Assembly (NCBI GenBank): GCA_964497315.1
Contig: CAZCCH010000002.1
Span: 17,519 to 81,518, forward strand
Length of the DNA stretch: 64,000 bases
Direction: 5' to 3'
DNA from: an uncultured Planctomycetia bacterium
GTDB taxonomy: Bacteria; Omnitrophota; Gorgyraeia; Taenaricolales; CAZCCH01
Shown here: one piece after another, positions 38,752 to 56,639 of the stretch
Layout of the letters: each line of letters starts with the position of its first letter
How positions within the stretch are numbered: position 1 is the stretch's first letter
The notes under the pieces: model-generated
What the model saw: only the letters and a program-made list of their open reading frames with translations
What the model was told of the DNA's origin: nothing
Databases searched by the model: none
Position numbers and translations under genes: made by a program

Positions 38752-38752
38752 A

Positions 38753-39970: not shown

Positions 39971-39976
39971 TTACTT

Positions 39977-41689
39977 TTAAGCCTCGCTCACCCTGGCAAC
40001 TTCACCTATTGTAGTTAGACCTCTGTTAACTTTATCTAGACCATTTAGCCATAACGTAGATATACCCAGTTCAATAGCCTTTTGCTTAATCTTGTCTGCA
40101 GAAACACGCTTTAAGATTAATTCTCTAATGGGTTCTGTTATTATTAAAAATTCATATATGCCGGTTCTTCCTTTGAAACCTGTAAATTTACACTCTTGAC
40201 ACCCCTTACCTTCATAAAACTCCATTTTTGATAAATCACCAATTCTTTTAGTTAATTCATGTTCTCTTTCAAGTTCCTGCAGTAACTCTTTAGAAGGTGC
40301 TACCTTCTGTTTGCATTTTTCACAAATTAACCTGACAAGCCTCTGAGCTATTATGCACTCCACAGAAGAAGCTACTAAAAATGGTTCAATACCCATATCC
40401 AAAAGCCTAGTGACTGCCCCTGAGGCATCATTGGTATGAAGTGTTGAGAACACAAGATGCCCTGTTAGGGCTACCCTTATTGTAATCTCTGCCGTCTCAA
40501 AGTCTCTGACCTCGCCAATCATCATTACATCTGGGTCATGGCGCAGCATAGAGCGTAATCCTTGTGCGAATGTGAGATTTATCTTAGGCATTATTTGAAT
40601 CTGCGTAATGCCTTTAATTTGATATTCAATAGGATCTTCTATTGTAATAATCTTCTTTGTTGCATCATTTATTTTAGTAAGACAAGCATAAAGAGTAGTT
40701 GTTTTTCCACTTCCAGTAGGACCTGTAACAAAGATAATGCCATGTGGCTTTTTAATCATTTGCTCAAGAATAGATAAATCACTCTTGGAAAGCCCCAGCT
40801 TCTCCAAGCTATACAACATTCCACTTGTAAGAATTCTTATATCAACACTTTCACCATGAGGGGTAGGAAGTGTTGAAACCCTCAAATCTAGGACAGCATC
40901 ACCAATTCTTACTTTAATCCTTCCATCTTGCGGTAGGCGACGTTCTGCTATATTAAGGCCTGCCATAATCTTTATCCTTGAAACAATGGCAGGCTGAAAG
41001 TATTTAATTGTATGCGGTATGGCCGTATCATAAAGAACACCGTCCACCCTATATCTCACCCTTGACTCATCTTCAAAAGGCTCTATGTGAATGTCTGTTG
41101 CCCTCTCCTTATAGGCTTGTAAGAGCAGTTGATTAACAAATGTCACTATTGATGCATCTTCAGCCATCTCCTTTATATCTTCAGTAGCAGTAGAACTCAA
41201 GGTCAATTCTTCCTTGCTTGCTGCCTCATCTATAATCTTCTCAATGGTATCAGCACCTATGCCATAATAACGCCTTATGGCATCTAAAATATCATTTTCA
41301 CCGGCTAATACAGGCTTTATTTCAAAACCCAGAAGGAGCTTTATATCATCTAAGGTATGGATATCCATAGGATTGGCAACTGCAATGGTTAAGACATTTG
41401 CTTCCTGAGATATCGGGATTAATTTATAGTGGCAGGCAAACTTGGCGGGAACCTTCTCTATCAATGATGGTTCAATGTGTGTATTTTCTAGCCTTACATG
41501 AGGAATGTGTAATTGCTCAGAAAGTACTGGTAATAATTTCTCTTCTGTCAAAAATCCTAGTTTGACTAACGTACTTCCTAAAAACTGGCCGGTAGTTGCT
41601 TGTTCTTTTAAAGCAACTTCTAATTGCTCATTACTGATTAAACCCTTCTGAACAAGTACTTGGCCTAAAAGTAAATTATCTTTAGGCAT
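39977..41689 (-). CDS. gspE: T2SS assembly ATPase GspE with an N-terminal MshEN-type domain
   Basis: 570 aa with Walker A GPTGSGKTT, Asp box, Walker B, His box and a tetracysteine motif (CEKC...CQEC). The N-terminus LLGQVLVQKGLISNEQLEVALKEQ matches the MshEN c-di-GMP-binding motif. Confidence 0.9.
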   Translation of the reverse strand: MPKDNLLLGQVLVQKGLISNEQLEVALKEQATTGQFLGSTLVKLGFLTEEKLLPVLSEQLHIPHVRLENTHIEPSLIEKVPAKFACHYKLIPISQEANVLTIAVANPMDIHTLDDIKLLLGFEIKPVLAGENDILDAIRRYYGIGADTIEKIIDEAASKEELTLSSTATEDIKEMAEDASIVTFVNQLLLQAYKERATDIHIEPFEDESRVRYRVDGVLYDTAIPHTIKYFQPAIVSRIKIMAGLNIAERRLPQDGRIKVRIGDAVLDLRVSTLPTPHGESVDIRILTSGMLYSLEKLGLSKSDLSILEQMIKKPHGIIFVTGPTGSGKTTTLYACLTKINDATKKIITIEDPIEYQIKGITQIQIMPKINLTFAQGLRSMLRHDPDVMMIGEVRDFETAEITIRVALTGHLVFSTLHTNDASGAVTRLLDMGIEPFLVASSVECIIAQRLVRLICEKCKQKVAPSKELLQELEREHELTKRIGDLSKMEFYEGKGCQECKFTGFKGRTGIYEFLIITEPIRELILKRVSADKIKQKAIELGISTLWLNGLDKVNRGLTTIGEVARVSEA

Positions 41690-43041: not shown

Positions 43042-43070
43042 TTGACAGGAAGTAGCTTTTCTTGTAGAAT
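43042..43070 (+). promoter_or_regulatory. Near-consensus sigma70 promoter driving the plus-strand glycosylation cluster
   Basis: TTGACA (43042-43047), a 17-nt spacer, then TAGAAT (43065-43070). An AAGGAG RBS precedes the ATG at 43147. Confidence 0.65.
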
Positions 43071-43146
43071 GTCTATAGTGTTATTTTATCAATATTCTAT
43101 CATAAAATATAGTTAATAGCAAAATATTTAAGAAAAAGGAGAACTA

Positions 43147-44325
43147 ATGAGTTTTTCTTCAAAAAGCAATTCAGGGCAAATTGAAGTTTCTGTAGTAATG
43201 CCTTGTTTAAACGAAGCTGATTCAGTGGGAATTTGTATTGAAAAAGCCATTGAGGGCCTTAAGAAAGCTGGCGTTAGTGGAGAAATCATAGTAGTAGATA
43301 ATGGTTCTACTGATAATTCTATCCAAATAGCTAATTCTAAAGGTGCTAGGGTAATAAAAGAACCTATAAAGGGTTACGGAAGTGCTTATATAACAGGTAT
43401 TAGACATGCTAAAGGAAAATATGTGGTTATGGGTGACGCTGACGACAGTTACGATTTTACCCAAATAGAAAAATTTTTAAAACCCTTGCAAAAAGGCTCT
43501 GATCTCGTCATGGGGTCAAGGCTTAAAGGTGAAATACTCAAGGGTGCTATGCCTTGGACACACCGCTATATTGGAAACCCTTTCCTCACCAGCTTCCTGC
43601 AATTTCTATTCCACACAAAGGTATCTGATGCTCACTGCGGAATGCGTGCCTTTAGTAAAGAGGCATTTGATAAAGTTGGGTTTAAAACCAAAGGTATGGA
43701 GTTTGCCTCAGAGATGATAGTTAAAGCCTTGCGAGCTGGTCTAAAAATTAAAGAAGTACCTATTAAATACCATCCGCGTAGAGGTAAATCTAAGTTAGTT
43801 CCTATGGAAGATGCCTGGCGGCATATGCGTTTTATGCTCCTTTTTAGTCCAACGCACTTATTTCTGCTTCCGGGGCTATTTTTATTTATCTTGGGCATAA
43901 TAGGGTTAATAGCATTATTGCCTGGACCGCTGCCTCTTGGATTTCATAAATACGATATACACTTTATGATAATGTCTAGCCTGATGACCATATTGGGTTT
44001 TCAGGTTATAAATCTAGGGTTTTATGCTAAGGTATTTTCCTTCCAAGAAGGTTATATTAAGCTTAGTGAAGACAGAGTTGTAAGTTTTCTTTCTAAAATA
44101 TTCAATTTAGAAAAGGGATTATTGATAGGTCTTTTAATTCTTTTGGCTGGATTAGGAATTAATATCTTTATCTTATGGAAATGGATCCTATCAAATTTTG
44201 GAGAACTTTTCGAAGTAAGACGTGCCCTATTTGCATTAACTCTTATGGTTATAGGCACGCAAACCATTTTTTCTTCTTTTTTCTTAAGCCTATTGGGAGT
44301 TGAACATTTTGAAACAGAAAAATAA
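43147..44325 (+). CDS. GT2 polyprenyl-phosphate glycosyltransferase (DPM1/ArnC/GtrB-like) with a C-terminal four-TM domain
   Basis: 392 aa. The GT-A fold has VVMPCLNEA...VVDNGSTD...DADDS (DxD). Confidence 0.8.
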   Translation: MSFSSKSNSGQIEVSVVMPCLNEADSVGICIEKAIEGLKKAGVSGEIIVVDNGSTDNSIQIANSKGARVIKEPIKGYGSAYITGIRHAKGKYVVMGDADDSYDFTQIEKFLKPLQKGSDLVMGSRLKGEILKGAMPWTHRYIGNPFLTSFLQFLFHTKVSDAHCGMRAFSKEAFDKVGFKTKGMEFASEMIVKALRAGLKIKEVPIKYHPRRGKSKLVPMEDAWRHMRFMLLFSPTHLFLLPGLFLFILGIIGLIALLPGPLPLGFHKYDIHFMIMSSLMTILGFQVINLGFYAKVFSFQEGYIKLSEDRVVSFLSKIFNLEKGLLIGLLILLAGLGINIFILWKWILSNFGELFEVRRALFALTLMVIGTQTIFSSFFLSLLGVEHFETEK

Positions 44326-45652
44326 CAATTTAATTTCAAGCATTCTACCTATTGTTCTAATCCTCCTTTTTGCTTTCTTTCTCAGAATCCCCACCTTTTG
44401 GCTTTCACACACAAACTATGATGAAATGGCATATCTTAGCCTAGCCTTAAAATTAGATAAATTCGGATTTAAAGACTTTAACAATACATATAATTTACGG
44501 AACGTTGATATTATGCGCACGAGGAATCTCGGCGGGCCCTTTTCTTCAGAAAAAGAAATGGGTAACATATTAACTGGTTCAGGGGTAACTTATGAAGCCA
44601 AATCACCTAACCACCGCCCACCTTTATTTAGTTATCTATTGATGCAATCTCATCGTTTTTTTCTTAAAGATAGGCCGTACTTAGTAGCGAATAAAAATCT
44701 CAGTCTAAAATCTCCATTTTTAGTGCAATTGCACGCAGTAATTATTCCTCTGATTTTTAGTCTTGCTCTTATCTTTTTTACATACCTTCTAGGTAAACAC
44801 TTATTTTCACAAAAGGTAGGGGTGTATGCGGCACTATTCATGAGCTTATCTCCAATTGATTTATTGGTTTCTCAAAGGGTTTGGGCTGGAGATCTTCTTG
44901 CATGCCTTACCACGCTAGCTGTTCTTTTTTACTGGCTTGGCTTGAAGAAAAATAAAGTGATTTTTTCTATTTTAGCTGGAATCTCAGTGGGGTTAGCTAT
45001 ATCTACTAAGATGACTGGTATGTTTGCAATAATTGCAATTCTTTCCTTTCATATCTGGCGCACTAGAGGAGAATGGTTAAGATTTAATTTAAAACCTTTA
45101 TTCTTAGATAGGCATATTATCAGTTTATTGCTAGCAGCATTCTTGACCTCAGGCCCCTGGCTTTACATCTATTACGAAGGAAGAATCCCTTTCATTCAAA
45201 CATCAGCAAAAATTCCTACGGGTTCTTTTGAAAAACTAACTCCTTGGCTAAGTTTTACTGCTACCAGACCCTGGTATATGTATTTAATAAATCCTGTAGT
45301 CCAACTGCCTGTATTTATTTTTGCCTACTGGATATTTGCCGAAGCATTCTTCAAGAAGAAACAAAATGATGGAAGCATGCTATTGTTTTTTTGGTTTTTA
45401 ACAACAGTTTTTGTGCTTTCCTTCTTGGTCTCTTGGAGTGAATTAAGGTATCTGCTACCTACATATCCATCATTGGCTATCTTAGCAAGTAAATACTTAT
45501 TACAGCTCTACGATTATTTAGAAAAATACTTAAAGACATGGAGCATGCAATTGTTGTTCATTGTCTTAATGCTACTAAATGGATATCAAGCCCTTAGGTT
45601 GGCAATTCCGCTTATAGTTGCCAGAGCTATTGCAATTCCTATTCCATTTTAA
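44300..45652 (+). CDS. GT-C family glycosyltransferase (PMT / ArnT / GT39-GT83-like)
   Basis: 450 aa polytopic membrane protein with an extracytoplasmic first-loop acidic motif (YDEMAY), typical of polyprenyl-P-sugar-dependent GT-C enzymes. Confidence 0.7.
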   Translation: MNILKQKNNNLISSILPIVLILLFAFFLRIPTFWLSHTNYDEMAYLSLALKLDKFGFKDFNNTYNLRNVDIMRTRNLGGPFSSEKEMGNILTGSGVTYEAKSPNHRPPLFSYLLMQSHRFFLKDRPYLVANKNLSLKSPFLVQLHAVIIPLIFSLALIFFTYLLGKHLFSQKVGVYAALFMSLSPIDLLVSQRVWAGDLLACLTTLAVLFYWLGLKKNKVIFSILAGISVGLAISTKMTGMFAIIAILSFHIWRTRGEWLRFNLKPLFLDRHIISLLLAAFLTSGPWLYIYYEGRIPFIQTSAKIPTGSFEKLTPWLSFTATRPWYMYLINPVVQLPVFIFAYWIFAEAFFKKKQNDGSMLLFFWFLTTVFVLSFLVSWSELRYLLPTYPSLAILASKYLLQLYDYLEKYLKTWSMQLLFIVLMLLNGYQALRLAIPLIVARAIAIPIPF

Positions 45653-45680
45653 GCTTCGACCATTTTTTAACAAAAATCAA

Positions 45681-47036
45681 ATGAAAGTATTACTGGTTAA
45701 TCCTCCACCGGAACAAATAATAGAACCATGGGATGAACTCGCTTATCCGCATTTGGGCTTAGCTTATTTAGCCGCTTTTTTAAAGAAAAATGGCGTAGGT
45801 GTTTCAATTATAGATGGCAAATTTGAAAAATTAAATATTGATCAAATAGCGGAAAAAACAAAGCGCATCTCTCCTGACATAATTGGCATTACAGCAATGA
45901 CTAATTATATAAAAGCATCTGCATGTATGGCTAAAAGGTTAAAAGAAATATTTCCCGATGCTGCTTTTTTAGTTGGTGGCGCGCACCCAACGGCGTTACC
46001 TACGGAAACATTGAGGGAATTTCCAGTTTTTGATTTGGCCATAATGGGCGAAGGGGAAAAAACTTTATTTGAAATTGCTGAATCCAAATCTAATCAGTGG
46101 CATTCAATTCAAGGGATAGCATATAAAAAAAGTGGGACAATAACTCAAAATTCTGCTCGTGAAAAAATTGAAGATTTAGATTCTTTACCCTTTCCGGCCT
46201 GGGATATCTTGCCCCGTGCAAAAACATATCCTTTAATAACTTCAAGGGGGTGTCCTTTTAGGTGTATTTTTTGCATGAGATTGCATGGCAATAAAATACG
46301 CTTGCGTACCACAAGCAACGTATTACAAGAAATGGAAATTTTAGCTGAAGAATATGGTGTCCGGCATATTCCTATAATGGATGAAATATTCACTATTAAT
46401 AAAGATAGAGTTTCAGCAATCTGCAACTCCATGATTACTGAAGGGTTAAATAAAAAACTTACATGGGGTGTAAATTCAAGAGTCACTGGAATTAGTCTTG
46501 AAATGTTTAAAAAAATGCATGAAGCAGGTTGTAGAAAAATAGATTTTGGAGTAGAGTCAGGAAATAATGAAATTTTAAAAATGATTGATAAAGGAATTAC
46601 TACAAAAGATGCTATATCGGCCGTTAAATTGGCTAAAAAAGCACGCATAAAAACTCATAGTTTATTTATCTTAGGTCACCCCCATGAAACTCAAAAAACA
46701 ATTCAGGATACTACCAAATTGATCGTCAAATTAAATACTACTTATTTATCTGTAGGCATTATGGTTCCTTATCCGGGTACAAAGGTATATGAAATGGCCA
46801 GGGCCGGTTTAGGTGGCTATCAAATAATGAGTCGTGATTGGAATGATTATAATAAACAAATAGGAAATGCCTTAGAACTAAAAAATTTAAATAGAAAAAC
46901 GCTAGAGAGGCAGCAGGTTATTTCTTATCTTAAATTCTATTTGTGTAATTTTAGGTTAATAGGTTTACTTAAATTTTTGCTTTCGTATAGAAAGGCGGCT
47001 TATTTCTATCTGAAGAATAAGCTATTGAGGATATAA
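45681..47036 (+). CDS. B12-binding (cobalamin-dependent) radical SAM protein
   Basis: An N-terminal B12-binding domain (MKVLLVNPPP...GITAMT...GGAHPT) is followed by a radical SAM core (CPFRCIFC). The likely start is the MKVLL at 45681 rather than the track start at 45618. Confidence 0.8.
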   Translation: MKVLLVNPPPEQIIEPWDELAYPHLGLAYLAAFLKKNGVGVSIIDGKFEKLNIDQIAEKTKRISPDIIGITAMTNYIKASACMAKRLKEIFPDAAFLVGGAHPTALPTETLREFPVFDLAIMGEGEKTLFEIAESKSNQWHSIQGIAYKKSGTITQNSAREKIEDLDSLPFPAWDILPRAKTYPLITSRGCPFRCIFCMRLHGNKIRLRTTSNVLQEMEILAEEYGVRHIPIMDEIFTINKDRVSAICNSMITEGLNKKLTWGVNSRVTGISLEMFKKMHEAGCRKIDFGVESGNNEILKMIDKGITTKDAISAVKLAKKARIKTHSLFILGHPHETQKTIQDTTKLIVKLNTTYLSVGIMVPYPGTKVYEMARAGLGGYQIMSRDWNDYNKQIGNALELKNLNRKTLERQQVISYLKFYLCNFRLIGLLKFLLSYRKAAYFYLKNKLLRI

Positions 47037-47040
47037 ATAA

Positions 47041-47964
47041 ATGCCAACGATATTTTCCATTATTATTCCTGTAAAAAATGGAGAGAAAACTATAAAAAAA
47101 TGTATAGATTCGCTGTTAAATCTAGATTGCGAAAATTTTGACATACTTGTGGTTGACGATGGTTCAAAGGATAACACTTTAAAAATTTTAAAAGATTACA
47201 CGAAAAAGATAAAGCTTATTACTGTAGATAAAGTTGGTCCATCTAGAGCAAGAAATTTAGCTGTAACGCACGCGGATGCGCAATATATTGCTTTTACAGA
47301 CAGTGATTGTACTGTAGATAAAAATTGGGTAAAAGAACTATTTAAGGGTTTTGAACTATTTCCCGATGCTGTTGCTTGTGGGGGAATTCAAAAATTACCA
47401 AAAGATGCCACAGAATTTGAAAAAAGGGTTTTTTTATTTATGAAAAAAACGGGGTTCGTTTCTGATTATATGCGAACAGCAAAGGACAATAGCATTGTAG
47501 AGGTAAAACACAATCCCTCCTGTAACGTCATGTATAAAAAAGATGTATTTTTAAAAGAAGGTGGTTTCTTAGAAAATTTATGGCCGGGGGAAGATGTGGA
47601 ATTAGATCATCGCTTGATAAAAAATGGACATAAGTTAATTTTTAACCCTAAGGCTGTGGTTTTTCATCACCGTCCTAAAAATCTGAAATCGTTTCTAAGG
47701 ATGATGGATAGATATGGTTGGGCTCAAGGTTTTCTGGTAAAAAAATACGGAATCTTCAGAAGGGTTCATTACGTGCCTTTGGTAAGTTTAGTTGCTTCTA
47801 TTGTTGTCTTAGTTGGTCTGTTTTTAAAGCTTTGGGGCATACCATTACTTTTAGTGCTTAGTTTGCTTTTGCTATTTAGATTTGATTTCCACCTTGCTCT
47901 TCTGGCTCTATTGGGCCTTTTCTTGTGGCAGAAGGGTTTTTTAAAAGGATTTATTAATACTTAA
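47041..47964 (+). CDS. GT2 glycosyltransferase with a C-terminal TM region
   Basis: 307 aa. FSIIIPVKNGEKTIKKCIDSLL...VVDDGSKD...DSD matches a GT-A fold. Confidence 0.8.
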   Translation: MPTIFSIIIPVKNGEKTIKKCIDSLLNLDCENFDILVVDDGSKDNTLKILKDYTKKIKLITVDKVGPSRARNLAVTHADAQYIAFTDSDCTVDKNWVKELFKGFELFPDAVACGGIQKLPKDATEFEKRVFLFMKKTGFVSDYMRTAKDNSIVEVKHNPSCNVMYKKDVFLKEGGFLENLWPGEDVELDHRLIKNGHKLIFNPKAVVFHHRPKNLKSFLRMMDRYGWAQGFLVKKYGIFRRVHYVPLVSLVASIVVLVGLFLKLWGIPLLLVLSLLLLFRFDFHLALLALLGLFLWQKGFLKGFINT

Positions 47965-47970
47965 AACATT

Positions 47971-48714
47971 ATGAAAAACAAAAAGGGTCATTATTCTTAT
48001 TGGGCGAATGCTCTAGAACTACCTCTCTATTCAAAAAAATTAAAATATTGGGGTGAAATGTCATACCTAGCAATGTTAAAAGAGGCCATAACGACAATAG
48101 AGGGTATATCATTATTGGAAATAGGCCCTGGAAAAGGGTACTTCGCAGAAAAGGCAATTGAAAGGGAAATTGATTATTATTCTATCGAAAGATCTGAAAT
48201 TCTAGTTGAGGAGTTATTGCGGAAAAATATAAATGTAATACGTGGGGATGCTTCAATTGTAGATGAAAATATCTTTAAGGATAAAAAGTTTGATGCAGTA
48301 TACCTATCTCATGTCATAGAACATTGCGATACAAGAAAGGAAGTTGAAAACTTAATAAAAAAATGTAGGGGTTGGTTGAAACCAAATGGCTACATTATGA
48401 TAAATGCTCCTAATGTCTTAAGTTATAAATTTGATTTTTGGATATCGGACTATACCCATAATTTTGTTACTACACCTCTTAGAGTAAAAAATTTATTACT
48501 AGATAATGAGTTCGAGCCTCTTTACGAACAAAGAACAGTTTTTGGTCTAAGAAATATTATATTGAGAAAATTTGCAGGTTGCTTATTCTTTCTTTGTCCT
48601 AATGCTATCTTAGATAGAATTGGAAGAATTTTTATGCCAAAAGGAGGAGAAGCTGGCTTTTCTATCTACGGACATGAAAACTTCACCATTATTGCCAAAA
48701 GGATGGAAAAATGA
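47971..48714 (+). CDS. Class I SAM-dependent methyltransferase
   Basis: 247 aa with motif I LLEIGPGKGYFAE. Confidence 0.7.
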   Translation: MKNKKGHYSYWANALELPLYSKKLKYWGEMSYLAMLKEAITTIEGISLLEIGPGKGYFAEKAIEREIDYYSIERSEILVEELLRKNINVIRGDASIVDENIFKDKKFDAVYLSHVIEHCDTRKEVENLIKKCRGWLKPNGYIMINAPNVLSYKFDFWISDYTHNFVTTPLRVKNLLLDNEFEPLYEQRTVFGLRNIILRKFAGCLFFLCPNAILDRIGRIFMPKGGEAGFSIYGHENFTIIAKRMEK

Positions 48715-49436
48715 AAACAAAAGAAGATAATTATGATATAACTTTAAACGAAATCGCATGGCTTCGTAAACCCATGGAAAAAATTCTTAAGAAAATCCAA
48801 AAATATGATTTTATTACCCCGAACTTACTAACTACTCTCTCCTTTGTCTTCGCCTTGATAGCTGCTATATTATTTCTATTGCCAGGCGACTCACGATTAG
48901 CCTTTGGTGCAGCACTGATTATTATTTCATATTTATTAGATTGTGCTGATGGAAGATTGGCGCGTTTGAAAAAGATGGAGTCAAGTTTTGGTTTTTGGTT
49001 TGATAGAATAACTGATCAGATAAAGCTTTCGCTTTTAATTTTATGTCTTGGCATGCGAGCTTATTTCATAGATTTCGCAAGTATTTCTATTTTAATTTTT
49101 AGTGCATTTGTGGTGGTAATTCAACTTGTTAAAGAATTTAATTGGGCGCTATTTGAAATTTTTCTACTCAAAAATAAACCAAAAACAGATTATGGCAAAT
49201 TCATACTGGATAATATAAACATTAAATTTACTAAGCAGACTTTAATAAAGCGGGTTTCTTTTCACATTGTTAGAATTTTGGCTTTTTTGCATTATGAGCA
49301 AATTTTTGTACTAAGCATATTCCCTTGTATCATAAAACCTGAGGCAACCATTTACATCTATGGTATTTTATCCTTAATTTCTCTTATAGGTAGAATTTCA
49401 ATATACGCAAAATTACTTTTAAAAAACAATGCATAA
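48711..49436 (+). CDS. CDP-alcohol phosphatidyltransferase family protein
   Basis: 241 aa membrane protein with the signature D-x2-D-G-x2-A-R...D-x3-D (LLDCADGRLARL...FDRITD). Confidence 0.8.
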   Translation: MKTKEDNYDITLNEIAWLRKPMEKILKKIQKYDFITPNLLTTLSFVFALIAAILFLLPGDSRLAFGAALIIISYLLDCADGRLARLKKMESSFGFWFDRITDQIKLSLLILCLGMRAYFIDFASISILIFSAFVVVIQLVKEFNWALFEIFLLKNKPKTDYGKFILDNINIKFTKQTLIKRVSFHIVRILAFLHYEQIFVLSIFPCIIKPEATIYIYGILSLISLIGRISIYAKLLLKNNA

Positions 49437-50169
49437 AAACCCCATAGCTATAATTCTAGCTGCAGGTAAAGGTATCAGGTTGCAGCCTCTTACGAAAGAA
49501 ATACCGAAACCTCTTATTGAGGTAAACAATGTCCCTATTTTATTTCATACCCTTGAGTGTTTAAAAAAATTAAAAATAGACAAGTGTATTATCGTAGTTG
49601 GATATAAAGCAAAGCTGTTTCAAGAATTGGTAGATAGTAAATATAAACATGATATAGATATTACCTATATTACAAATAAAGATTTTGATAAAACTAACAA
49701 CATGTATTCATTGTGGCTTGCAAGTGATTATCTCAGTAACAACGATTGCATATTAATCGAAGCTGATGTCTTGTTTGATTATAAAATATTGAGTTCTTTG
49801 GATTTTCGTAATCCAACTTCTTTTTGGTTGGTAGATAAATTTAAAGAAAATATGAACGGGGCCCTCCTCATAACAGATAAAACTGGTAAAATTGAAAAAA
49901 TTAAAATAGTAAGAGAAAAATTACTGGAATATAAAAACAACTATTATAAGTCCATTGGTATATTAAAAATTAAAAAAGATTTGGGTAAAAAACTTTCTGC
50001 ATGGTTAAATAAAGAAGTAACGGCTAATAATAAAAATATTTACTATGACCTGGTAATTGCAAAATATTTAAAAGAAGCAAACCTATTTGTAAAATACATA
50101 AATAATCTCAAGTGGTGGGAAATAGATGACGAAAGTGATTTGAAATACGCGCAAAAATTATTTAAGTAA
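49429..50169 (+). CDS. Nucleotidyltransferase (sugar or phospho-alcohol cytidylyl/nucleotidyl transferase, LicC/IspD-like)
   Basis: 246 aa. AIILAAGKGIRLQPLT is the NTP-transferase glycine-rich loop. Confidence 0.75.
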   Translation: MHKNPIAIILAAGKGIRLQPLTKEIPKPLIEVNNVPILFHTLECLKKLKIDKCIIVVGYKAKLFQELVDSKYKHDIDITYITNKDFDKTNNMYSLWLASDYLSNNDCILIEADVLFDYKILSSLDFRNPTSFWLVDKFKENMNGALLITDKTGKIEKIKIVREKLLEYKNNYYKSIGILKIKKDLGKKLSAWLNKEVTANNKNIYYDLVIAKYLKEANLFVKYINNLKWWEIDDESDLKYAQKLFK

Positions 50170-50173
50170 AAAA

Positions 50174-51028
50174 ATGGACGTCCTAAATTATAAAAAAGTC
50201 AAAGAGTTCTGGGAAAATAGATATAAAAGGATAAATGTAGCGGGTGATTTATATCTAGCAAACCTATCTGACAATATTCCCCTACAAGCTATATATAAAG
50301 ATAAGCTGGAAAAACAAATTATAAGCAATAAAGTTTATTTAACTAAAGATATGGATGTATTAGACCTTGGATGCGGAACAGGGAGAATGGCATTGTTTTT
50401 TGCCAAGAAATGCAAACATGTAACAGCTATTGATTTTTCTGCAAATCTTTTAAAGATAGCCGCTAATAAGATAAAAAGTATGGACTTAGACAATATTAAA
50501 TTAATTCAACAATCTATTGCTAATTTTCACAGTAATCACAAATTCGATATTATTTTCATTGGAGGCGTATTGTCCTTTCTGAATGATATAGATGTAGAAA
50601 ATGTAGTGCGCAATATTAAAGATATGCTAAAAGAAAACGGGAAATTGATAATAAGAGATTCTCTTCGTTGGAGAAAAAGATGTGTTTTAAAAGAAAAATT
50701 TATAAATAATTTTAAAGATGATTACAGTATAATATATAGAACAATAGGAGAAATTAAAAGGGTTTTTAAAAAAAATACATTCTATTTAAACTCGGAAAGC
50801 AGCTTAGCTGTTTTCCCTTTCATGGGATTGTACCATTATCCAATAAGGTTAATAGCTGGAAAAAGCAAAATCTATTCCAAATTATCTAAAATCTATTTTG
50901 GGTTAGTCTATCGTTTTATTCCTTATATCCGCTGCTATAAAAATATGAGATTCTATAAAGTGATTTCTTACCTGCTTAATAGGTACGATCAAAGGTTTTT
51001 TATATATTTCCTAAAAAATAGACCCTGA
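50174..51028 (+). CDS. Class I SAM-dependent methyltransferase
   Basis: 284 aa with motif I VLDLGCGTGRMALFFAKK. Confidence 0.75.
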   Translation: MDVLNYKKVKEFWENRYKRINVAGDLYLANLSDNIPLQAIYKDKLEKQIISNKVYLTKDMDVLDLGCGTGRMALFFAKKCKHVTAIDFSANLLKIAANKIKSMDLDNIKLIQQSIANFHSNHKFDIIFIGGVLSFLNDIDVENVVRNIKDMLKENGKLIIRDSLRWRKRCVLKEKFINNFKDDYSIIYRTIGEIKRVFKKNTFYLNSESSLAVFPFMGLYHYPIRLIAGKSKIYSKLSKIYFGLVYRFIPYIRCYKNMRFYKVISYLLNRYDQRFFIYFLKNRP

Positions 51029-51034
51029 AAATCA

Positions 51035-52273
51035 ATGAGAGATACAAAAAATAATTTCTTGCTTCTTCCATCACTATATTTAATATGTTCTAGAATCTCC
51101 TTAGCTATATCTGGTGTATTATTTTGGTGCTTAGCAGCGCGCATTTATTCAATAGAAGATATAGGATTAGGGGCAGCTTTAATCTCAGTCTCTTCTCTTA
51201 TTATCTTTATCTCCTCTCTAGGCATTGCGCCTACTTTTGTAAGATTCCTGCCTCAAAAAGAAAACAAGGGTAAACTATTAGGTACCTTCTTTGGCCTTTC
51301 ACTGTTCTTGTTGGTTGTACTTTGTGTAATATTTCTCATGAATTCAAGTTTCTTTTTACCTAAGGTTGATTTTCTAAAAACTTCCTTTTATCCTTTTGTT
51401 TTCTTTGTTTTTGTTTTATCTATGCAAATTTTTCACACATTGGATAGTGTCTATACAGCCTTTAATGTAACCTGGTTGGTATTATTTAAAAATGTTATTC
51501 AAAATTTCTTAAAGATTGGCTTGCTTCTTTCGCTCTTCTCCTTAGGTAGCTTTGGCATTTTCTCCTCTAATTGTTCAGCAGCAATAGTAGCTATTTTAAT
51601 ATCTGTTATTTATTTTATTAAAAAACATCCATCAATTAACTTTAAACTAGGAATAGACATTTCTGTTCTAAAAAAGCTTCTTCCTTTTTCTTTGACAAAT
51701 TTTTTGAATTCAGCTTCCTTGTATCTTCCTGGAATGGTTTTTCCCATTATCATAATCTCCGCATTTTCACAAAGAGAAGCTGGATTGTTTTACATACCCT
51801 GGATGATATTTCTTACTTATTGCAGTTTTATCACTTCAGTCAATAATATATTTTTAATGAAAGCTTCATATGGCGAAAATATTAAAAAGTTACTTAAAAA
51901 AACAATCGCATTTTCTTTTGCATTGGGACTTGTGGGATTCTTAATTTTTACTATCTGGGGAAATAAGATTCTTCTTATATTTAAGGAAGATTTTTCTCAA
52001 AATTCCCTTATGACTCTAAAGCTTCTTTTTTATTCCATATTCTTTTTTATTATTAACCAGATTTATATTACAATTCTAAATATCAATGAAAAAATACTAA
52101 AATTAGGGATAATTACTTCTTTAATAATCATAAGTATAATTATCTTTACTATAATATTGTTGCCTACAATGAAAACAGAGGGCATGGCATTGGCTTGGTT
52201 AGTTGCCAATCTTATAGGAAGCATTTATGTCTTTGTGGATTTTTTAATTACAGGTAGGAAAATGTTAAAATAG
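51035..52273 (+). CDS. MOP-superfamily oligosaccharide flippase (Wzx-like)
   Basis: 412 aa with 12 or more TM segments and polysaccharide biosynthesis protein architecture. Confidence 0.7.
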   Translation: MRDTKNNFLLLPSLYLICSRISLAISGVLFWCLAARIYSIEDIGLGAALISVSSLIIFISSLGIAPTFVRFLPQKENKGKLLGTFFGLSLFLLVVLCVIFLMNSSFFLPKVDFLKTSFYPFVFFVFVLSMQIFHTLDSVYTAFNVTWLVLFKNVIQNFLKIGLLLSLFSLGSFGIFSSNCSAAIVAILISVIYFIKKHPSINFKLGIDISVLKKLLPFSLTNFLNSASLYLPGMVFPIIIISAFSQREAGLFYIPWMIFLTYCSFITSVNNIFLMKASYGENIKKLLKKTIAFSFALGLVGFLIFTIWGNKILLIFKEDFSQNSLMTLKLLFYSIFFFIINQIYITILNINEKILKLGIITSLIIISIIIFTIILLPTMKTEGMALAWLVANLIGSIYVFVDFLITGRKMLK

Positions 52274-52979
52274 CCACTGTAGCAATGGCTGCTGTATCGC
52301 ATTTTAGAACTGTAGGACCTAAAGAAACTAATTTACAACCTTCCTTTTTTGCTAATCCCATTTCCGACGGACTAAAATCCCCCTCCGGTCCAATAAACAA
52401 TGCCATGCTGGATATTTTTGATTTTGGTAATACACTCTTTAAATCCTTTGTTTCTTCATCAAGGCAGGCTATAAGTTTCAAAGGGTGATTTTTTACCGAC
52501 TTTAAAGCAGTTTTAAAGCTTGTAATATTTTCAATCTTAGGGATATCCCACCTTCCGCATTGCTGTGAAGCCTCTATTGCGATTTTATTCCAACGCTTTA
52601 AGCGAAGTACCTTCTTGGCCTCATTTAGCTTTACAATGGTTCTTTCTGTCTGAATAGGTATAACAATACTCACTCCTAGCTCGGTTGTCTTCTGTATTAT
52701 ATAATCCATTTTATTCTGCTTTGGTACAGCACAAACCAAAGTAATCTTTGGTAGGTTTAAAGGTAATACCTTTCTAACTGATTTAACCCTTACCCTGGCT
52801 TCCCTAGGGGAAATCTTCTCAATAATGCCAACGAACTCTTTTCCTTTGCCATTAAAGGCAACTATGCTATCACCTTCCTTCAGCCTCATTACATCCTTTA
52901 TATGATGAAACCTGTTTCCTGAGATTATAATGGTTGAGTCGTTAACTATGGATTCTGGGGTAACGTAAAATCTACTCAT
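52248..52979 (-). CDS. rsmE: 16S rRNA (uracil1498-N3)-methyltransferase RsmE
   Basis: 243 aa with a PUA-like N-terminus (RFYV...GNRFHHI) and a SPOUT C-terminal domain (GPEGDFSPSE). Confidence 0.85.
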   Translation of the reverse strand: MSRFYVTPESIVNDSTIIISGNRFHHIKDVMRLKEGDSIVAFNGKGKEFVGIIEKISPREARVRVKSVRKVLPLNLPKITLVCAVPKQNKMDYIIQKTTELGVSIVIPIQTERTIVKLNEAKKVLRLKRWNKIAIEASQQCGRWDIPKIENITSFKTALKSVKNHPLKLIACLDEETKDLKSVLPKSKISSMALFIGPEGDFSPSEMGLAKKEGCKLVSLGPTVLKCDTAAIATVAILTFSYL

Positions 52980-54460
52980 TCTTCACCAAAAATACATGCA
53001 GAAAAGATAAAAATCTCAGCATTTTTCTTCCAAGCATCAGCAGGCAGACCTGCCTTGTTGCAGGTATGCGCAAGAAACTCATCCCTATTCCAATCATATT
53101 CTGTAGCTACCTGCGGTAAGAGCAAACCTGAATAAAATCCTTTTCTAATCAAGATACCATGCGTACCAACTTTAATCTTTTCTACATCTTGAATCTTTTC
53201 CAACTCAGATAAAACAGAAATTTCTATTTTTAACTCATCAAGCTCTTCAGCTCCTACCGCAGGAAACCTTGGATCACCGCTTGAAGACTGTATTGCCATC
53301 TCAGCTATAGTATCACATAAAGGCTTATCAGCTATTATGCGACCAATGCACCCTCTAAGGTTTCCATTTTTTTTAATAGTTACAAAGGCACCTTTTTTTG
53401 TAAGTAAAACAGGGTCTTTTTCCTTAAACTTTACTCGCTTTCCTGTTTTAATATAAGTTTCCATAGATTCTTTGGCTATCTTTAATATTCTTGCCTTTTG
53501 AGCTTCTGTTAACATCATTCCTCCTTCGGTATTTTTAAAAGCGGGGCTTTCTGATTGAGGCTCGGGTATTGATGTCTTTTTATAAACAACGGCACTAACA
53601 TAGCCAACAACTTGCCTTTTATCGCCCGTAATATCACCTGAGTTCGCATAATTGAGCACTTCGATATCTTTAGCCCCTATTTTCTCTGCTAACATGAGCG
53701 TGCAAGTAACCGGTGCATATCCACAACAGGGCTGATCTTTAAAAACCCCTCTTTGGAAGATCTCTTTATACTTAAACTCTTTTATTAGATTAATGGTTTC
53801 TGCATCTTGCGTGACTGCTTGGTTATAGCTTTTATAATGAGATAAATCTGTGCTTGCTATAATAACTATATCTTCTCTCTTTGATAATACGTCTAATAAA
53901 ATATCAGAAAGAATATTACAATCTTCATAGTTTGGGTTACCAAAAACAACAGGAACAATTTTAACATCAGGTATTACCTTTTTTAAAAAAGGTAATTGAA
54001 GCTCCAGGGAATTCTCACCTTCAAATACTTCTTTAGAAAACTTTATCCTTTCTGATTTTGATATCATTAAATCAGCTAATTCTTCATCTATTTCAAGATC
54101 TCCCAGCGGAGTAATAAATTCACTAGTCTTATAAACTGAGATACCATCATAATGCTTCCTATGGCTAAATCCTAATATAATAGCTGTTTCTATCTCTTTG
54201 TGTGACAATAAGTTATAGCCATAAGCAGCTACTGCACCTGAAAACATAAGGCCTGCATGTGGAGAGATTATAGCAATTATTTTACCTTCAACTGTGGGTA
54301 CAGTGGCTGAATTTAGGTAGCTGTCAAGTTGCTTATTGAGTGTTTTTTTATTGGAAGGATACCAGTTACCTGCCAAATCTGCTTTTTTAGATTGGGCCAG
54401 GGCTTGGCTATTAAAAAGAATTAAAGACATACACAAGAATACTATAAATTTTGTGCGCAT
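52976..54460 (-). CDS. Signal-peptide-bearing fusion: MEMO1-family (AmmeMemoRadiSam system protein B) domain plus AMMECR1 (protein A) domain
   Basis: 494 aa. Sec signal MRTKFIVFLCMSLILFNSQALA. The Memo region has IISPHAGLMFSG and STDLSHY. The AMMECR1 region has GAFVTIKKNGNLRGCIGRI. Confidence 0.75.
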   Translation of the reverse strand: MRTKFIVFLCMSLILFNSQALAQSKKADLAGNWYPSNKKTLNKQLDSYLNSATVPTVEGKIIAIISPHAGLMFSGAVAAYGYNLLSHKEIETAIILGFSHRKHYDGISVYKTSEFITPLGDLEIDEELADLMISKSERIKFSKEVFEGENSLELQLPFLKKVIPDVKIVPVVFGNPNYEDCNILSDILLDVLSKREDIVIIASTDLSHYKSYNQAVTQDAETINLIKEFKYKEIFQRGVFKDQPCCGYAPVTCTLMLAEKIGAKDIEVLNYANSGDITGDKRQVVGYVSAVVYKKTSIPEPQSESPAFKNTEGGMMLTEAQKARILKIAKESMETYIKTGKRVKFKEKDPVLLTKKGAFVTIKKNGNLRGCIGRIIADKPLCDTIAEMAIQSSSGDPRFPAVGAEELDELKIEISVLSELEKIQDVEKIKVGTHGILIRKGFYSGLLLPQVATEYDWNRDEFLAHTCNKAGLPADAWKKNAEIFIFSACIFGEE

Positions 54461-54569: not shown

Positions 54570-55640
54570 TTATTTCTTTTTAAAGGCTTCTGTTAATGAA
54601 ACCAGTTCTTCACTATTTGAGGAGCGACGCATAGCCTCATCCCAGGAAATCACATGGTTTAAGTATAATTCTGCCAATGATTGGTTCATCGTGCTCATGC
54701 CGTATTTTTTTCCTGTTTGAATACATGTATAAATCTGAGGGAGGCTATTTTCTCTGATGAGGCTTCTTATGGGAGGGGTTACAGTCATTAACTCATAAGC
54801 AAGAGCCCTTCCTCCATCCTTGACCTTGGGTATTAACTGCTGTGAAGCAACGCCTATTAGAGCCATAGACAGCTGAACCCTGATCTGTTGCTGTTGGTAG
54901 GGTGGGAAAACATCTATAATTCGGTTAATTGTATGAGTGGCATCTATTGTATGCAGGGTAGCTAAAATAAGATGACCTGTCTCAGCTAAAGTTAAAGCTG
55001 TATGAATTGTATCTAAGTCTCTCATTTCTCCAATCATGATTATGTTTGGGTCTTGCCTAAAAACCCTGCGTAAGGCTTCAGCAAAAGAATGCGTATCTGT
55101 GCCTACCTCTCTTTGGTCTATAGTGGCCTTGTTATGCTTGTGTAAATATTCAATTGGATCTTCAATTGTAACTACATGGCAGGGTCTGTGTTCATTTATA
55201 TATTTTATCATAGCTGCTAGTGTCGTGGACTTTCCACTTCCAACAGCACCTGTAACCAAAAATAAACCGCTGTGCTTTAGGCAAAAATCCTCTATTAGAT
55301 TTGGCAGACCTAATTCTTTAAAACTCGGTATATTAAACGGTACAAGCCTTATACTCATAGCTACGCAATTACGCTGCATATATAAATTAATACGGAATCT
55401 ACTTAAACCCGAAATCCCGTATGAAAAATCTAATTCTTTTGCTTTTTCAAACTCTTCTATCTGTTTTTCTGTCAAAATCGAGTATGCCAATTCCCTTGCC
55501 TGTTCTACACCTAAAGGCTTTTTTGTTCCAGAAAATTCCAAAATACCATCTACCCTAAGTTGCGGAGGAATCCCTGTTGTGATGTGTAAATCTGATGCAT
55601 CGCGCTTCACCATCTCTTTTAATAATTCTAACATTTGCAT
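54570..55640 (-). CDS. pilT: Type IV pilus retraction ATPase PilT
   Basis: 356 aa with Walker A GAVGSGKST, the AIRNLIRE-like motif (IRSLIRENS) and a His box. Confidence 0.9.
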   Translation of the reverse strand: MQMLELLKEMVKRDASDLHITTGIPPQLRVDGILEFSGTKKPLGVEQARELAYSILTEKQIEEFEKAKELDFSYGISGLSRFRINLYMQRNCVAMSIRLVPFNIPSFKELGLPNLIEDFCLKHSGLFLVTGAVGSGKSTTLAAMIKYINEHRPCHVVTIEDPIEYLHKHNKATIDQREVGTDTHSFAEALRRVFRQDPNIIMIGEMRDLDTIHTALTLAETGHLILATLHTIDATHTINRIIDVFPPYQQQQIRVQLSMALIGVASQQLIPKVKDGGRALAYELMTVTPPIRSLIRENSLPQIYTCIQTGKKYGMSTMNQSLAELYLNHVISWDEAMRRSSNSEELVSLTEAFKKK

Positions 55641-55763
55641 TTTATCTATATCCTCCTTTTAATAAAAAACACGAATTTCACGGTTTTTATTTTCATAAGA
55701 CATATTTGTTTCTTCTTTGTCTTGGGAGCAAATAAATTTTCCAACAATCCGTGTAATTCGTGC

Positions 55764-56639
55764 CTAATGCGGAAGGGCCAATACTATTCTCTCGCCCCAA
55801 ACTGTGGGCAGAATTGACACTTCAACATTCACTATAGCATCTTGACATGCAGCAAGTTTTATCTTAAATCTGCCATCTTGTAAAACATTTCTGCATGATG
55901 AATCCAGCACTGATAAATATTTTATCCTGCTTGTTACGGAAGTCAATATGGACTTAGAATACGCTCCTATTTGTTCAAGGCCTTGGCCTATACGGAAAAA
56001 AATCTTTAGATGGGCCTCCCCTGGCTGAATGTGGACAGCTTTCGCATTATCCCTGTAAGCCCTCTCTAGGAGCAAATTAATAAATGAAACAGCAAATGCT
56101 AAATTCTTCTCACCCTTTTTACCCCAAGCTGCGTCTAGCTCGGGCTTCGCCGTAGTCTCAATGGAGTCTAAGGAAGATTTTTGCTGAAGTTCTGTTTCGT
56201 AATAGTCAGTAATATATCGTTTAATTTGATTTTTTGAGCATACTATAATTACTATTCGGCACTTTGTAACCTTTGAAAGCGAATCTGCAGCTGTAAAATC
56301 AAGAGGATCGGACATCGCTACATGGAGAGCAGTTTCTTCTTTTCGTATTGGGAACACATTATGCCTTTTGGCCAAACTAGCAGGAACTAAACTTATAGCC
56401 TCTGGTGAAATCCTGTTAAAACCATCTAAATTTAAAAATGGAAAATTAAGATATGAGGCCAAGAATGAGGCAAAATCTTCATCTTTTAAAAAGCCTAGTT
56501 TTACGGTTATTTCACCGAGAGGTTCTTTTTCCGGGACCTTTCTTTGATAGTGCAAGGCCTCTTTTAGCTGCTCTTCTGTAATTAAATCAGCATCTAAAAG
56601 ACTCTGTCCTATAGGTTTTCTAACTACCATAACTATCAC
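55764..56639 (-). CDS. Standalone MshEN / GspE-N-terminal domain protein (putative c-di-GMP receptor)
   Basis: 291 aa. The N-terminus has two MshEN-type motifs: IGQSLLDADLITEEQLKEALHYQ and LGEITVKLGFLKDEDFASFL. There is no ATPase domain. Confidence 0.6.
   Translation of the reverse strand: MIVMVVRKPIGQSLLDADLITEEQLKEALHYQRKVPEKEPLGEITVKLGFLKDEDFASFLASYLNFPFLNLDGFNRISPEAISLVPASLAKRHNVFPIRKEETALHVAMSDPLDFTAADSLSKVTKCRIVIIVCSKNQIKRYITDYYETELQQKSSLDSIETTAKPELDAAWGKKGEKNLAFAVSFINLLLERAYRDNAKAVHIQPGEAHLKIFFRIGQGLEQIGAYSKSILTSVTSRIKYLSVLDSSCRNVLQDGRFKIKLAACQDAIVNVEVSILPTVWGERIVLALPH

Follow-up and report, generated by a model that had tools for sequence, protein, structure and literature searches.

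The nine-gene operon

We analyzed a stretch of 64,000 nucleotides from contig CAZCCH010000002.1 (the window) and looked into a block of nine plus-strand open reading frames (ORFs), located at positions 43147 to 52273, which encodes glycosyltransferases together with a CDP-alcohol phosphotransferase. The ORFs are tightly packed, with gaps of at most 28 nt or overlaps, and the nine genes are one real operon. Their Pfam assignments are, in order, a GT2 glycosyltransferase, a PMT_2/PMT membrane glycosyltransferase of the GT-C type, a protein with B12-binding and Radical_SAM domains, a second GT2 (GT2b), an S-adenosylmethionine (SAM)-dependent methyltransferase (MT1), a CDP-OH_P_transf protein, an NTP_transferase protein, a second methyltransferase (MT2), and a protein with a weak Polysacc_synt match. 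An initial annotation, made by a model from the letters and translations without database searches, had described a nine-gene plus-strand cluster, and the Pfam domains agree with its list; the GT2/GT-C pair that it named is present, but it counted a single GT2 where the operon has two. It had also placed the cluster, as the sole plus-strand block, between two secretion or pilus clusters. Indeed, the minus strand carries all other credible genes, including the three tRNA genes and that of the RNase P RNA, and sets of type II secretion system (T2SS)/type IV pilus (T4P) genes are located at about 29.8 to 41.7 kb and 54.5 to 63.9 kb.

A sigma-70-type promoter-like site, TTGACA-17-TAGAAT (43042..43070, plus strand), matches 11 of 12 consensus positions; the 140 nt in which it is located separate the first operon gene from the divergent mtaB. 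As previously suggested, it is near consensus, and it was the top-scoring site of this kind between 42.5 and 53 kb, while promoter-like sites overall were not enriched (40 found versus 45.6 in shuffles). A GGAG ribosome-binding site is positioned 6 nt 5' of the ATG at 43147, and no Rfam element was found in the leader. At the other end of the operon, the 3' end of the last gene overlaps the convergent rsmE by 26 nt. The GC content of the operon is 32.5%, versus 37.5% for the remaining window; a lower GC content had been correctly noted, but the proposed contrast (about 30% versus 40%) was too large. The value is below those of all 146 equal-sized windows elsewhere (minimum, 35.5%). The case for a foreign island is nevertheless weak, because the GC content at third codon positions (GC3) in the block (0.26 to 0.32) resembles that of the neighbors (0.26 to 0.34) and because the drop comes mainly from the last four genes (28 to 30%). 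We therefore rejected a foreign AT-rich island as an explanation; we found no integrase and no tRNA gene abutting either end of the block, and no repeat search was made.

A conserved module with a rare CDP-alcohol phosphotransferase

The sixth gene (48711..49436, plus strand) encodes a CDP-alcohol phosphotransferase of the prokaryotic type with six transmembrane (TM) segments (PF01066, 59.3 bits for a cutoff of 22). Its catalytic motif, D77xxD80G81xxA84R85x8G94xxxD98xxxD102, is complete and is invariant in 7 homologues. The subfamily is very rare: a search of 5.8 billion proteins gave no more than 8 homologues at E<=1e-5, 1.84 billion representatives contained only 4 clusters at E<=1e-30, and the score falls steeply beyond the subfamily, from 127 to 110 to less than 90 bits. 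In an AF2 model of the protein (pLDDT, 75.5), the best fold match was AF2299 (TM-score, 0.63), followed by phosphatidylinositol-phosphate (PIP) synthases and IPCT-DIPPS; the model was distant from CEPT1/CHPT1, the eukaryotic choline/ethanolamine phosphotransferases (TM-score, ∼0.35).

We then examined the genetic context of the relatives of this signature enzyme. Four other lineages (loci L007/8/12, L009, L010, and L011/13) share a common gene order, namely STT3, GT2_TM_C (the family of the first GT2 of the operon), in some cases MT1, the phosphotransferase, the NTP-transferase, MT2, and GT2b, and the proteins are 44 to 62% identical to those of the window. Two of the four lineages are labeled Omnitrophota or Omnitrophica, and homologues of the phosphotransferase include ones named Candidatus Omnitrophica or Omnitrophota, so the source organism is probably an uncultured member of the Omnitrophota. 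The STT3 proteins of the relatives (777 to 853 aa) carry a WWDFG, WWDLG, or WWDYG motif (L007, L009, L010, and L013) and look like true N-oligosaccharyltransferases. The operon of the window differs from these loci in two respects: a PMT_2-type GT-C occupies the STT3 slot, and the stretch from the GT-C gene to MT1 has an insertion comprising a B12-radical SAM gene and GT2b. In L007, pilin, PilMNO, and secretin genes are found directly 3' of the module, and UDP-glucose dehydrogenases and epimerases are encoded near the module in the relatives. Our literature search found no paper on glycosylation in Omnitrophota.

The first gene of the operon (43147..44325, plus strand; Glycos_transf_2, 106.6 bits) encodes a polyprenyl-phosphate hexosyltransferase-like protein of the AglJ/DPM1/GtrB/ArnC type, for which the precomputed annotation is PF26629 (GT2_TM_C). 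AglJ is its best NCBIfam match (158 bits for a cutoff of 325), the model for a halophile Dol-P-hexose transferase gave 110 bits, and the translation shows a GDADD (DxD) motif and three C-terminal TM-like segments. Orthologues with 46 to 53% identity are located directly 3' of STT3 in L007, L009, L010, and L013. The second gene (44309..45652, plus strand; 447 aa) was assigned by Pfam and TM prediction to the PMT_2/PMT/ALG9-like GT-C glycosyltransferases, with matches above the cutoffs to PMT_2 (41.6 bits, cutoff 26.1), PMT (34.1 bits, cutoff 22.7), and Glyco_transf_22 (26.4 bits). The protein has about 11 TM-like segments, and an acidic YDE motif can be read in the first loop after TM1. It probably starts at TTG 44309, with GGGAG 9 nt upstream, as a start at the first ATG (M43) would delete TM1 and the DE loop. 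This GT-C fills the slot that STT3 takes in the related loci, but we detected no sequence similarity to the STT3 of the relatives, to the unannotated multi-TM proteins of two loci harboring B12-radical SAM genes (L019 and L021, see below), or to any PDB sequence.

GT2b (47041..47964, plus strand; Glycos_transf_2, 121 bits) has a C-terminal membrane anchor and also matches the Pfam families Glyco_tranf_2_2, Glyco_tranf_2_3, and Glyco_trans_2_3, whereas its NCBIfam matches, MftF (135 bits) and EpsD (127 bits), are below cutoff. It probably adds a further sugar to a lipid-linked intermediate. Orthologues with 44 to 49% identity end the module in L007, L009, L010, and L013. The last gene (51035..52273, plus strand) encodes a protein of 412 aa with 12 predicted TM-like segments, a candidate MOP/Wzx-like flippase. 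The match to Polysacc_synt is weak (18.4 bits, E=1.6e-3, cutoff 28.2), that of the orthologue in L009 (42% identity) is somewhat higher (22.6 bits, E=8e-5), and the window protein had no NCBIfam match. We consider that it probably flips the lipid-linked product.

Glycosyltransferases, a flippase-like protein, and a nucleotidyltransferase found together, as well as the UDP-glucose dehydrogenases and epimerases near the modules of the relatives, would also be expected of an ordinary O-antigen, capsule, or teichoic acid locus in which the nucleotidyltransferase and the CDP-alcohol enzyme make CDP-glycerol or CDP-ribitol. We give this explanation very little credence, since the cluster contains no Wzy, Wzz, ABC transporter, WbaP/WecA-type initiating phosphoglycosyltransferase, Glyphos_transf protein, or TagD/TarI-type cytidylyltransferase, and since the partner in the relatives is STT3. 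Moreover, CDP-OH_P_transf enzymes are not known from teichoic acid or capsule pathways. The lack of Wzy, Wzz, ABC transporter, Glyphos_transf, and LicD in the cluster also bears out the initial statement that the gene combination does not match a standard O-antigen or capsule locus.

Two loci with more distant relatives of the phosphotransferase were recorded as well. In L016 (2077-8472), a distant CDP-alcohol enzyme of 347 aa, whose N terminus carries a cytoplasmic extension as in AF2299, is likewise flanked by two methyltransferases, and genes for a UDP-glucose dehydrogenase, an epimerase/dehydratase, and a DegT aminotransferase are found downstream. L015 encodes an NTP-transferase/CDP-alcohol phosphotransferase fusion (5644-7056; 470 aa) and a second CDP-alcohol phosphotransferase (12703-14205; 500 aa) among genes for MMPL, MlaC, LPG_synthase_TM, a class III aminotransferase, and GFO/IDH/MocA proteins. 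The L015 genes resemble those of a pathway for a lipid head group, perhaps an aminocyclitol.

Head group, candidate pathway, and alternatives

The seventh gene (49429..50169, plus strand; 246 aa; NTP_transferase, 64.3 bits) encodes a LicC-family nucleotidyltransferase, probably a cytidylyltransferase. Its best solved relatives, which align over the full length, are LicC (1JYK, 63.7 bits) and PntC (6PD1, 48 bits). At the position of LicC Trp136, a residue of the choline aromatic box, our alignment shows Ala or Thr, in a region that aligns poorly. Asp105 and Asp192 of LicC correspond to Glu104 and Glu196 of PntC, and these residues contact the amine of choline or of 2-aminoethylphosphonate (AEP) (PMC6697681). 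In the window protein, E111 aligns with PntC E104 and LicC D105 (the residue being Glu, as in PntC), and D207 aligns with LicC D192 and PntC E196. Both positions are acidic throughout the family, and the acidic residues that contact the metal are also kept. Orthologues are 52 to 61% identical in L007, L009, and L013, and the identity to a fused enzyme in L010 is 33%; the window-type and fusion-type enzymes share the motifs TNNxYSLW, [LI]ExD, and YY[DE].

The L010 protein (607 aa in total) consists of the nucleotidyltransferase fused to a class I/II CobD-like pyridoxal phosphate (PLP) domain. The best NCBIfam match of the fusion is CobD (149 bits), and the best PDB match of the whole protein is 6OUX (115.6 bits), a "threonine phosphate decarboxylase-like enzyme." The same protein name is used for SMUL_1544, an L-serine-O-phosphate decarboxylase. 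The CobD-like protein Cj1436 was reported to convert serine phosphate into ethanolamine phosphate for the Campylobacter capsule (PMC12409886). The fusion family is widespread (>3900 matches), and we found no paper on it in our literature search. One member lies beside LicD, Wzx, and Wzy in an O-antigen locus of Proteus terrae (L022), and another, in L023, lies beside LicD and a methyltransferase that is orthologous both to the methyltransferase of L010 (99 bits) and to the one adjoining a CDP-alcohol phosphotransferase in L028 (59 bits). For this methyltransferase family, the matches were generic only. As for the Proteus locus itself (CP116621.1, 7011-13498), it adjoins cpxA and comprises an Octopine_DH-like gene, the NTP-transferase/CobD-like fusion, Wzx, LicD, and Wzy. 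Carboxyethyl-ethanolamine-phosphate decorations have been reported for Proteus O-antigens, and the gene content of L022 would fit with them.

A LicC-like enzyme paired with a CDP-alcohol phosphotransferase most naturally points to a phospho-alcohol head group activated as its CDP derivative. The initial annotation had arrived at such an intermediate, and this view gained support from LicC being the best solved relative and from the complete catalytic motif of the phosphotransferase. We suggest that the head group is probably phosphoethanolamine-like and amine-bearing, with a methyltransferase dedicated to it, and possibly N-methylated; an amine is favored because of the decarboxylase fusion in L010, the occurrence of the same fusion beside LicD in Proteus, and the conservation of the acidic amine-contact residues. 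Of the phosphocholine-type or phosphonate-type decorations envisaged at first, an amino-alcohol phosphate is therefore favored, while the phosphonate alternative fared poorly. Indeed, when we looked for the PEP mutase (pepM) and choline kinase genes that the initial annotation had proposed to check, and for inositol-phosphate synthase (myo-inositol-1-phosphate synthase), phosphonopyruvate decarboxylase, and LicD, none was present in the cluster, in the other scanned ORFs of the window, or among the genes called in the loci with related modules. A LicB-type choline transporter domain was likewise not found in the cluster or in the other scanned ORFs of the window.

We then analyzed the two methyltransferases. 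MT1 (47971..48714, plus strand; Methyltransf_23, _11, _12, and _25) is a variable member of the module, with an orthologue (62% identity) only in L007; the gene is absent from L009 and L013, and L010 has a nonorthologous methyltransferase instead. The protein has a hydrophobic C terminus and a weak similarity in the PDB (34 bits) to phosphoethanolamine methyltransferases (PEAMTs or PMTs). MT2 (50174..51028, plus strand; Methyltransf_25, _31, _12, and _11, with near full-length matches to Methyltransf_PK and NodS as well) is the conserved methyltransferase of the module, with orthologues of 51 to 54% identity in L007, L009, and L013. Its PDB and Pfam matches include many N-methyltransferases (NodS, PRMT, pavine NMT, and the Methyltransf_PK family), and its single-sequence AF2 model had a pLDDT of 34. 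Plant PEAMTs top the PDB lists only through the summing of two domains of ∼35 bits each, and a single-domain precorrin methyltransferase reached 51 bits. The assignment of both methyltransferases as PEAMT-like was accordingly downgraded to weak evidence, the top rank being an artifact of this summing. The two SAM-dependent methyltransferases first proposed are present, but their similarity to PEAMTs is weak and partly artifactual. The gene neighborhood makes N-methylation of the head group plausible, with O-methylation of a sugar as the alternative.

The third gene (45681..47036, plus strand) encodes a cobalamin-binding class B radical SAM enzyme (B12-binding, PF02310, 78.6 bits for a cutoff of 32.1; Radical_SAM, PF04055, 91.1 bits for a cutoff of 29.5), with the CxxxCxxC motif present as GCPFRCIFC in the translation. 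The start is ATG 45681, which gives an exact match to a public protein, whereas the version starting at TTG 45618 is unmatched. NCBIfam matches were all below cutoff (BchE, 201 bits for 481; HpnJ, 193 for 577; PhpK family P-methyltransferase, 141 for 600). The best solved relative was 9CCB (77 bits), which is QCMT, a C-methyltransferase (PMC12931638). The family is large (3952 matches at E<=1e-20). Three sampled members, from Chloroflexi, Nealsonbacteria (candidate phyla radiation), and a metagenome contig, belong to glycan-type clusters, often as tandem paralogues, and a fourth, a 65% orthologue (L024-26), lies beside housekeeping genes, a context that is uninformative. The gene is absent from the module loci L007, L009, L010, and L013. 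Its nearest orthologue (70% identity) is in L019, where it is followed by the nearest orthologue of GT2b (57% in BLASTP), and the L019 cluster has no CDP-alcohol enzyme. This distribution suggests that the B12-radical SAM protein is probably an accessory glycan-tailoring enzyme tied to GT2b.

Two of these loci are rich in radical SAM genes. L021 (Candidatus Nealsonbacteria, GCA_016181985.1; 375-14957) contains eight paralogous B12-binding radical SAM genes in 15 kb, together with one methyltransferase, an LPG_synthase_TM protein, and a multi-TM protein of 566 aa without a Pfam match; the family of the window enzyme is thus strikingly expanded in this locus. L019 (1-17356) is a glycan locus heavily tailored by radical SAM enzymes, with three SPASM radical SAM genes, two more B12-radical SAM genes, dTDP-sugar enzymes, and a pair formed by a GHMP kinase and an NTP-transferase.

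The initial annotation had drawn a parallel with Fom3-like enzymes, which act on cytidylylated substrates. A corresponding phosphonate decoration would involve a PntC-like activation of AEP followed by C-methylation of the cytidylylated phosphonate by the B12-radical SAM enzyme. The full-length alignment to PntC, the Glu kept at the position of PntC E104, and the match to the PhpK family P-methyltransferase model are in line with this possibility, and class B radical SAM enzymes do include Fom3. We regard it as highly improbable, considering that PEP mutase and phosphonopyruvate decarboxylase were not found in the search described above, that the PLP domain of L010 is of class I/II and CobD-like and not a class V AEP transaminase such as that of PntC, and that the PhpK score is far under its cutoff. 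Furthermore, a Fom3-like role on the head group is not supported, because the B12-radical SAM gene travels with GT2b and not with the CDP module, being missing from all other module loci. The Fom3-like reading was therefore dropped.

Taken together, these data lead us to propose, with slightly less than even confidence, that the operon builds a small lipid-linked sugar, adds to it a CDP-activated, amine-bearing phospho-alcohol, and exports the product to decorate the cell surface. The proposal is based on the conservation of the module order and partners, the clues to the head group, and the complete motif of the phosphotransferase. GT2_TM_C would load a hexose on polyprenyl phosphate at the cytoplasmic face, like AglJ, DPM1, and GtrB, and GT2b would lengthen the lipid-linked intermediate. 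The B12-radical SAM enzyme, found only in the version of this genome, may tailor the sugar, C-methylation being the likeliest reaction by analogy. The LicC-like enzyme would make CDP-ethanolamine or a close analogue, and the six-TM phosphotransferase would move the phospho-alcohol onto the membrane-bound intermediate, a role played elsewhere by LicD; we infer that the phosphotransferase stands in for LicD in this module family. One or two of the SAM-dependent methyltransferases could then methylate the product, with N-methylation towards a phosphocholine-like group being plausible. Finally, the 12-TM MOP-like protein would flip the product across the membrane, and the GT-C would pass it to a periplasmic or surface acceptor.

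Several observations weigh against this proposal. Known CDP-alcohol phosphotransferases use lipids or small alcohols as acceptors, and none is known to use a sugar hydroxyl. The NCBIfam matches of the phosphotransferase are to archaetidylinositol-phosphate synthase (61.5 bits), BT1523-type PIP synthase (46 bits), and PIPS (36 bits), and the IPCT-DIPPS equivalog model (cutoff 580), whose alignment covers the full nucleotidyltransferase, gave 61.7 bits with the NTP part and 33.2 bits with the CDP-OH part. In L027 and L028, both short contigs, a phosphotransferase and methyltransferase pair occurs without an upstream glycosyltransferase. A decarboxylase and STT3 were not found in the window by tblastn, nor did the Pfam scans of its ORFs reveal a kinase or another source of phospho-alcohol. 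At the position of the catalytic His of PMTs (within ..AILHL.. in PfPMT), MT2 has GGVLSFLN and no His, and the ambiguity between N- and O-methylation also counts on this side. Lastly, pilus genes are common in these genomes, and the adjacency of the module to pilin genes may thus be coincidental.

Part of this evidence could be accommodated by a Kennedy-type phospholipid route, in which CDP-ethanolamine or CDP-choline would react with diacylglycerol to yield phosphatidylethanolamine, its N-methyl derivatives, or phosphatidylcholine; the methyltransferases would be PmtA-like, and the glycosyltransferases would be separate or would make glycolipids. Besides the acceptors of the characterized enzymes and the L027 and L028 pairs, this route is favored by the fold matches of the phosphotransferase, which are lipid and inositol-phosphate synthases, by the hydrophobic C termini of both methyltransferases, by a faint PmtA match of MT1 (E=7.7e-4), and by the position of the distant relative of L015 among MMPL, MlaC, and LPG_synthase genes. 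A LicC and Cpt pair also makes phosphatidylcholine in Treponema. We nevertheless consider a phospholipid route unlikely, as the module sits between GT2_TM_C and GT2b and is preceded by STT3 in four independent lineages, as the subfamily is extremely rare, unlike a bulk membrane-lipid pathway, and as the modeled structure is far from those of the choline/ethanolamine phosphotransferases.

The inositol-related matches raise another possibility, namely, that an IPCT/DIPPS-like or CDP-glycerol-like pair attaches inositol phosphate or glycerol phosphate and that the methyltransferases O-methylate the sugars or the polyol. The NCBIfam matches of the phosphotransferase to inositol-phosphate enzymes, the full-length alignment of the nucleotidyltransferase to the IPCT-DIPPS model, and the best fold match, AF2299, which belongs to the IPCT-DIPPS lineage, all speak for a polyol. 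All these scores are, however, far under the equivalog cutoffs (170 to 580), and the same IPCT model gives an even better score, 71 bits, with the decarboxylase-fused enzyme of L010, which makes the match nonspecific. With, in addition, no inositol-phosphate synthase in the search described above and the acidic amine-contact residues kept, we judge a polyol-phosphate head group to be quite improbable. The inositol-phosphate reading of the top NCBIfam matches was rejected on the grounds of this nonspecificity and of the inositol-phosphate synthase not being found.

Returning to the glycan decoration that we favor, the acceptor is probably a protein, because the enzyme of the relatives at the slot of the GT-C is an STT3 N-oligosaccharyltransferase. 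The pilin genes next to the L007 module and the T2SS/T4P sets that flank the operon are suggestive of a link to pilins, and by analogy with these loci, a protein acceptor, possibly pilins, is a reasonable candidate. The periplasmic glycosylation initially deduced from the GT2 and GT-C genes is therefore strengthened by the true STT3 enzymes and by the pilin genes following the module in one relative. Overall, the first interpretation of the locus was partly right, the chemistry being what we infer from the gene content.

A more specific version of our proposal, and the most novel one, is rather unlikely as a whole. According to it, the phosphotransferase subfamily would be without precedent in its superfamily in having a lipid-linked sugar as its acceptor, and phosphoethanolamine would be made de novo, placed on a polyprenyl-phosphate-linked glycan, and N-methylated towards phosphocholine, before the glycan is transferred to proteins, for example pilins (by STT3 in the relatives and by the PMT-type GT-C here). 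If true, this would constitute a decoration of glycoproteins with phosphoethanolamine or phosphocholine that is independent of LicD, EptC, and PptA, and a bacterial counterpart of the phosphobase-methylation pathway. The latter has been described as confined to plants, nematodes, and protozoa (PMC4805780).

The general proposal, if true, would add a third mechanistically distinct bacterial way to put phospho-amino-alcohols on surface glycans, besides the LicD-type and EptC/PptA-type mechanisms, and glycans would join lipids and polyols as acceptors within the CDP-alcohol phosphotransferase superfamily. It would also document that the Omnitrophota, whose members are tiny, rich in pili, and possibly dependent on hosts, have compact operons for protein glycosylation in the archaeal style (AglJ plus STT3). 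Because a PMT-type GT-C has taken the place of STT3 in an otherwise conserved module, the loci offer a natural experiment on the exchange of the final glycosylation transferase. For the time being, the practical value is modest.

Chromosomal surroundings and comparison with known systems

The first 14.5 kb of the window is filled by a complete dcw cluster (412-14548, minus strand), with mraZ, mraW, an ORF of 123 aa without a Pfam match, an ftsI-type penicillin-binding protein gene, murE, murF, mraY, murD, ftsW, murG, murC, murB, and ddl, and the organism therefore makes the normal set of peptidoglycan precursors. This cluster is followed by rpoD and dnaG, and these normal neighbors place the operon in the core chromosome. 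The bacterial class A RNase P RNA (14869-15209, minus strand; 183 bits) overlaps by its 5' end, by a few bases, the end of an RNase H/RVT_3 ORF (15203-15712). Two large minus-strand genes follow, encoding a protein of 1378 aa (16992-21128) with only HEAT repeats and a receiver domain and a protein of 858 aa (21632-24208) with only faint TPR matches; the segment at 21 to 22 kb is the sole one with a positive GC skew outside the operon.

Pilus and secretion genes are unusually dense in the window. Two separate sets of secretin, T2SSE, T2SSF, pseudopilin, and PilMNO genes (29852-41689 and 54570-63920) occur within 35 kb, and these regions also hold an extra PilT-like ATPase and a short MshEN-T2SSE protein (288 aa). 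Just downstream of rsmE, a fused Memo and AMMECR1 protein (52976-54460, minus strand; 494 aa) is encoded, followed by a tRNA-Ala gene; the fusion is retained in public copies of the contig. One such copy, with a sequence identical to the window, is JGI metagenome contig Ga0117905_1000187 (114.5 kb).

We finally compared the operon with characterized systems. It resembles the Lic pathway (LicA/B/C/D) of Streptococcus pneumoniae and Haemophilus by its LicC-family nucleotidyltransferase, a probable cytidylyltransferase, and by a CDP-activated phospho-alcohol that would serve a surface glycan, and in the LicD-dependent decorations of L022 and L023, it is a decarboxylase-fused version of the same nucleotidyltransferase family that adjoins LicD. 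The operon differs in having no LicD, LicA, or LicB, the transfer being assigned to a CDP-alcohol phosphotransferase, which has another fold. IPCT/DIPPS, AF2299 of Archaeoglobus, and the bacterial PIP synthases share with it the combination of a nucleotidyltransferase and a six-TM CDP-alcohol phosphotransferase and provide the best sequence and fold matches. Here, however, the identity is only 17 to 19%, scores stay below the equivalog cutoffs, the loci searched yielded no inositol-phosphate synthase, and the module is set in a glycosylation operon with methyltransferases.

Similarities to the archaeal Agl system (AglJ, AglG, AglP, AglR, and AglB) and to bacterial PglB include AglJ as the best match of GT2_TM_C, an AglG match of GT2b, a SAM-dependent methyltransferase, a flippase, and, in the relatives, a WWDxG STT3 directly upstream. 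The window, in contrast, has no STT3 and carries a PMT_2-type GT-C instead, and CDP-alcohol phosphotransferases are not known from Agl or Pgl systems. The GtrA/B/C, ArnC/ArnT, CsbB/YfhO, and TfpW systems likewise combine a TM-bearing polyprenyl-phosphate GT2 with a GT-C and a flippase, and the arabinosylation of pilins by TfpW, a GT-C, is a precedent for the glycosylation of pilins by this class of enzymes. They differ from the operon, which has a 12-TM MOP-like flippase candidate and in which no small GtrA domain was found; the extra GT2, CDP-module, and methyltransferase steps point to a decorated oligosaccharide rather than a single sugar. With the class B radical SAM methyltransferases QCMT, TokK, GenK, and Fom3, the B12-radical SAM protein shares the B12-binding Rossmann domain, the radical SAM core, and the CxxxCxxC motif, but the match to QCMT reaches only 77 bits, no equivalog is reached, and no link to a cytidylylated substrate was found in the loci compared.

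All parts of the operon thus come from known superfamilies, and its logic, from a lipid-linked glycan through decoration and flipping to transfer by a GT-C, is already known. What is new is a rare CDP-alcohol phosphotransferase subfamily within STT3/GT-C glycosylation operons, in the position expected for LicD, the constant association of this subfamily with methyltransferases, and the replacement of STT3 by a PMT-type GT-C in this genome.

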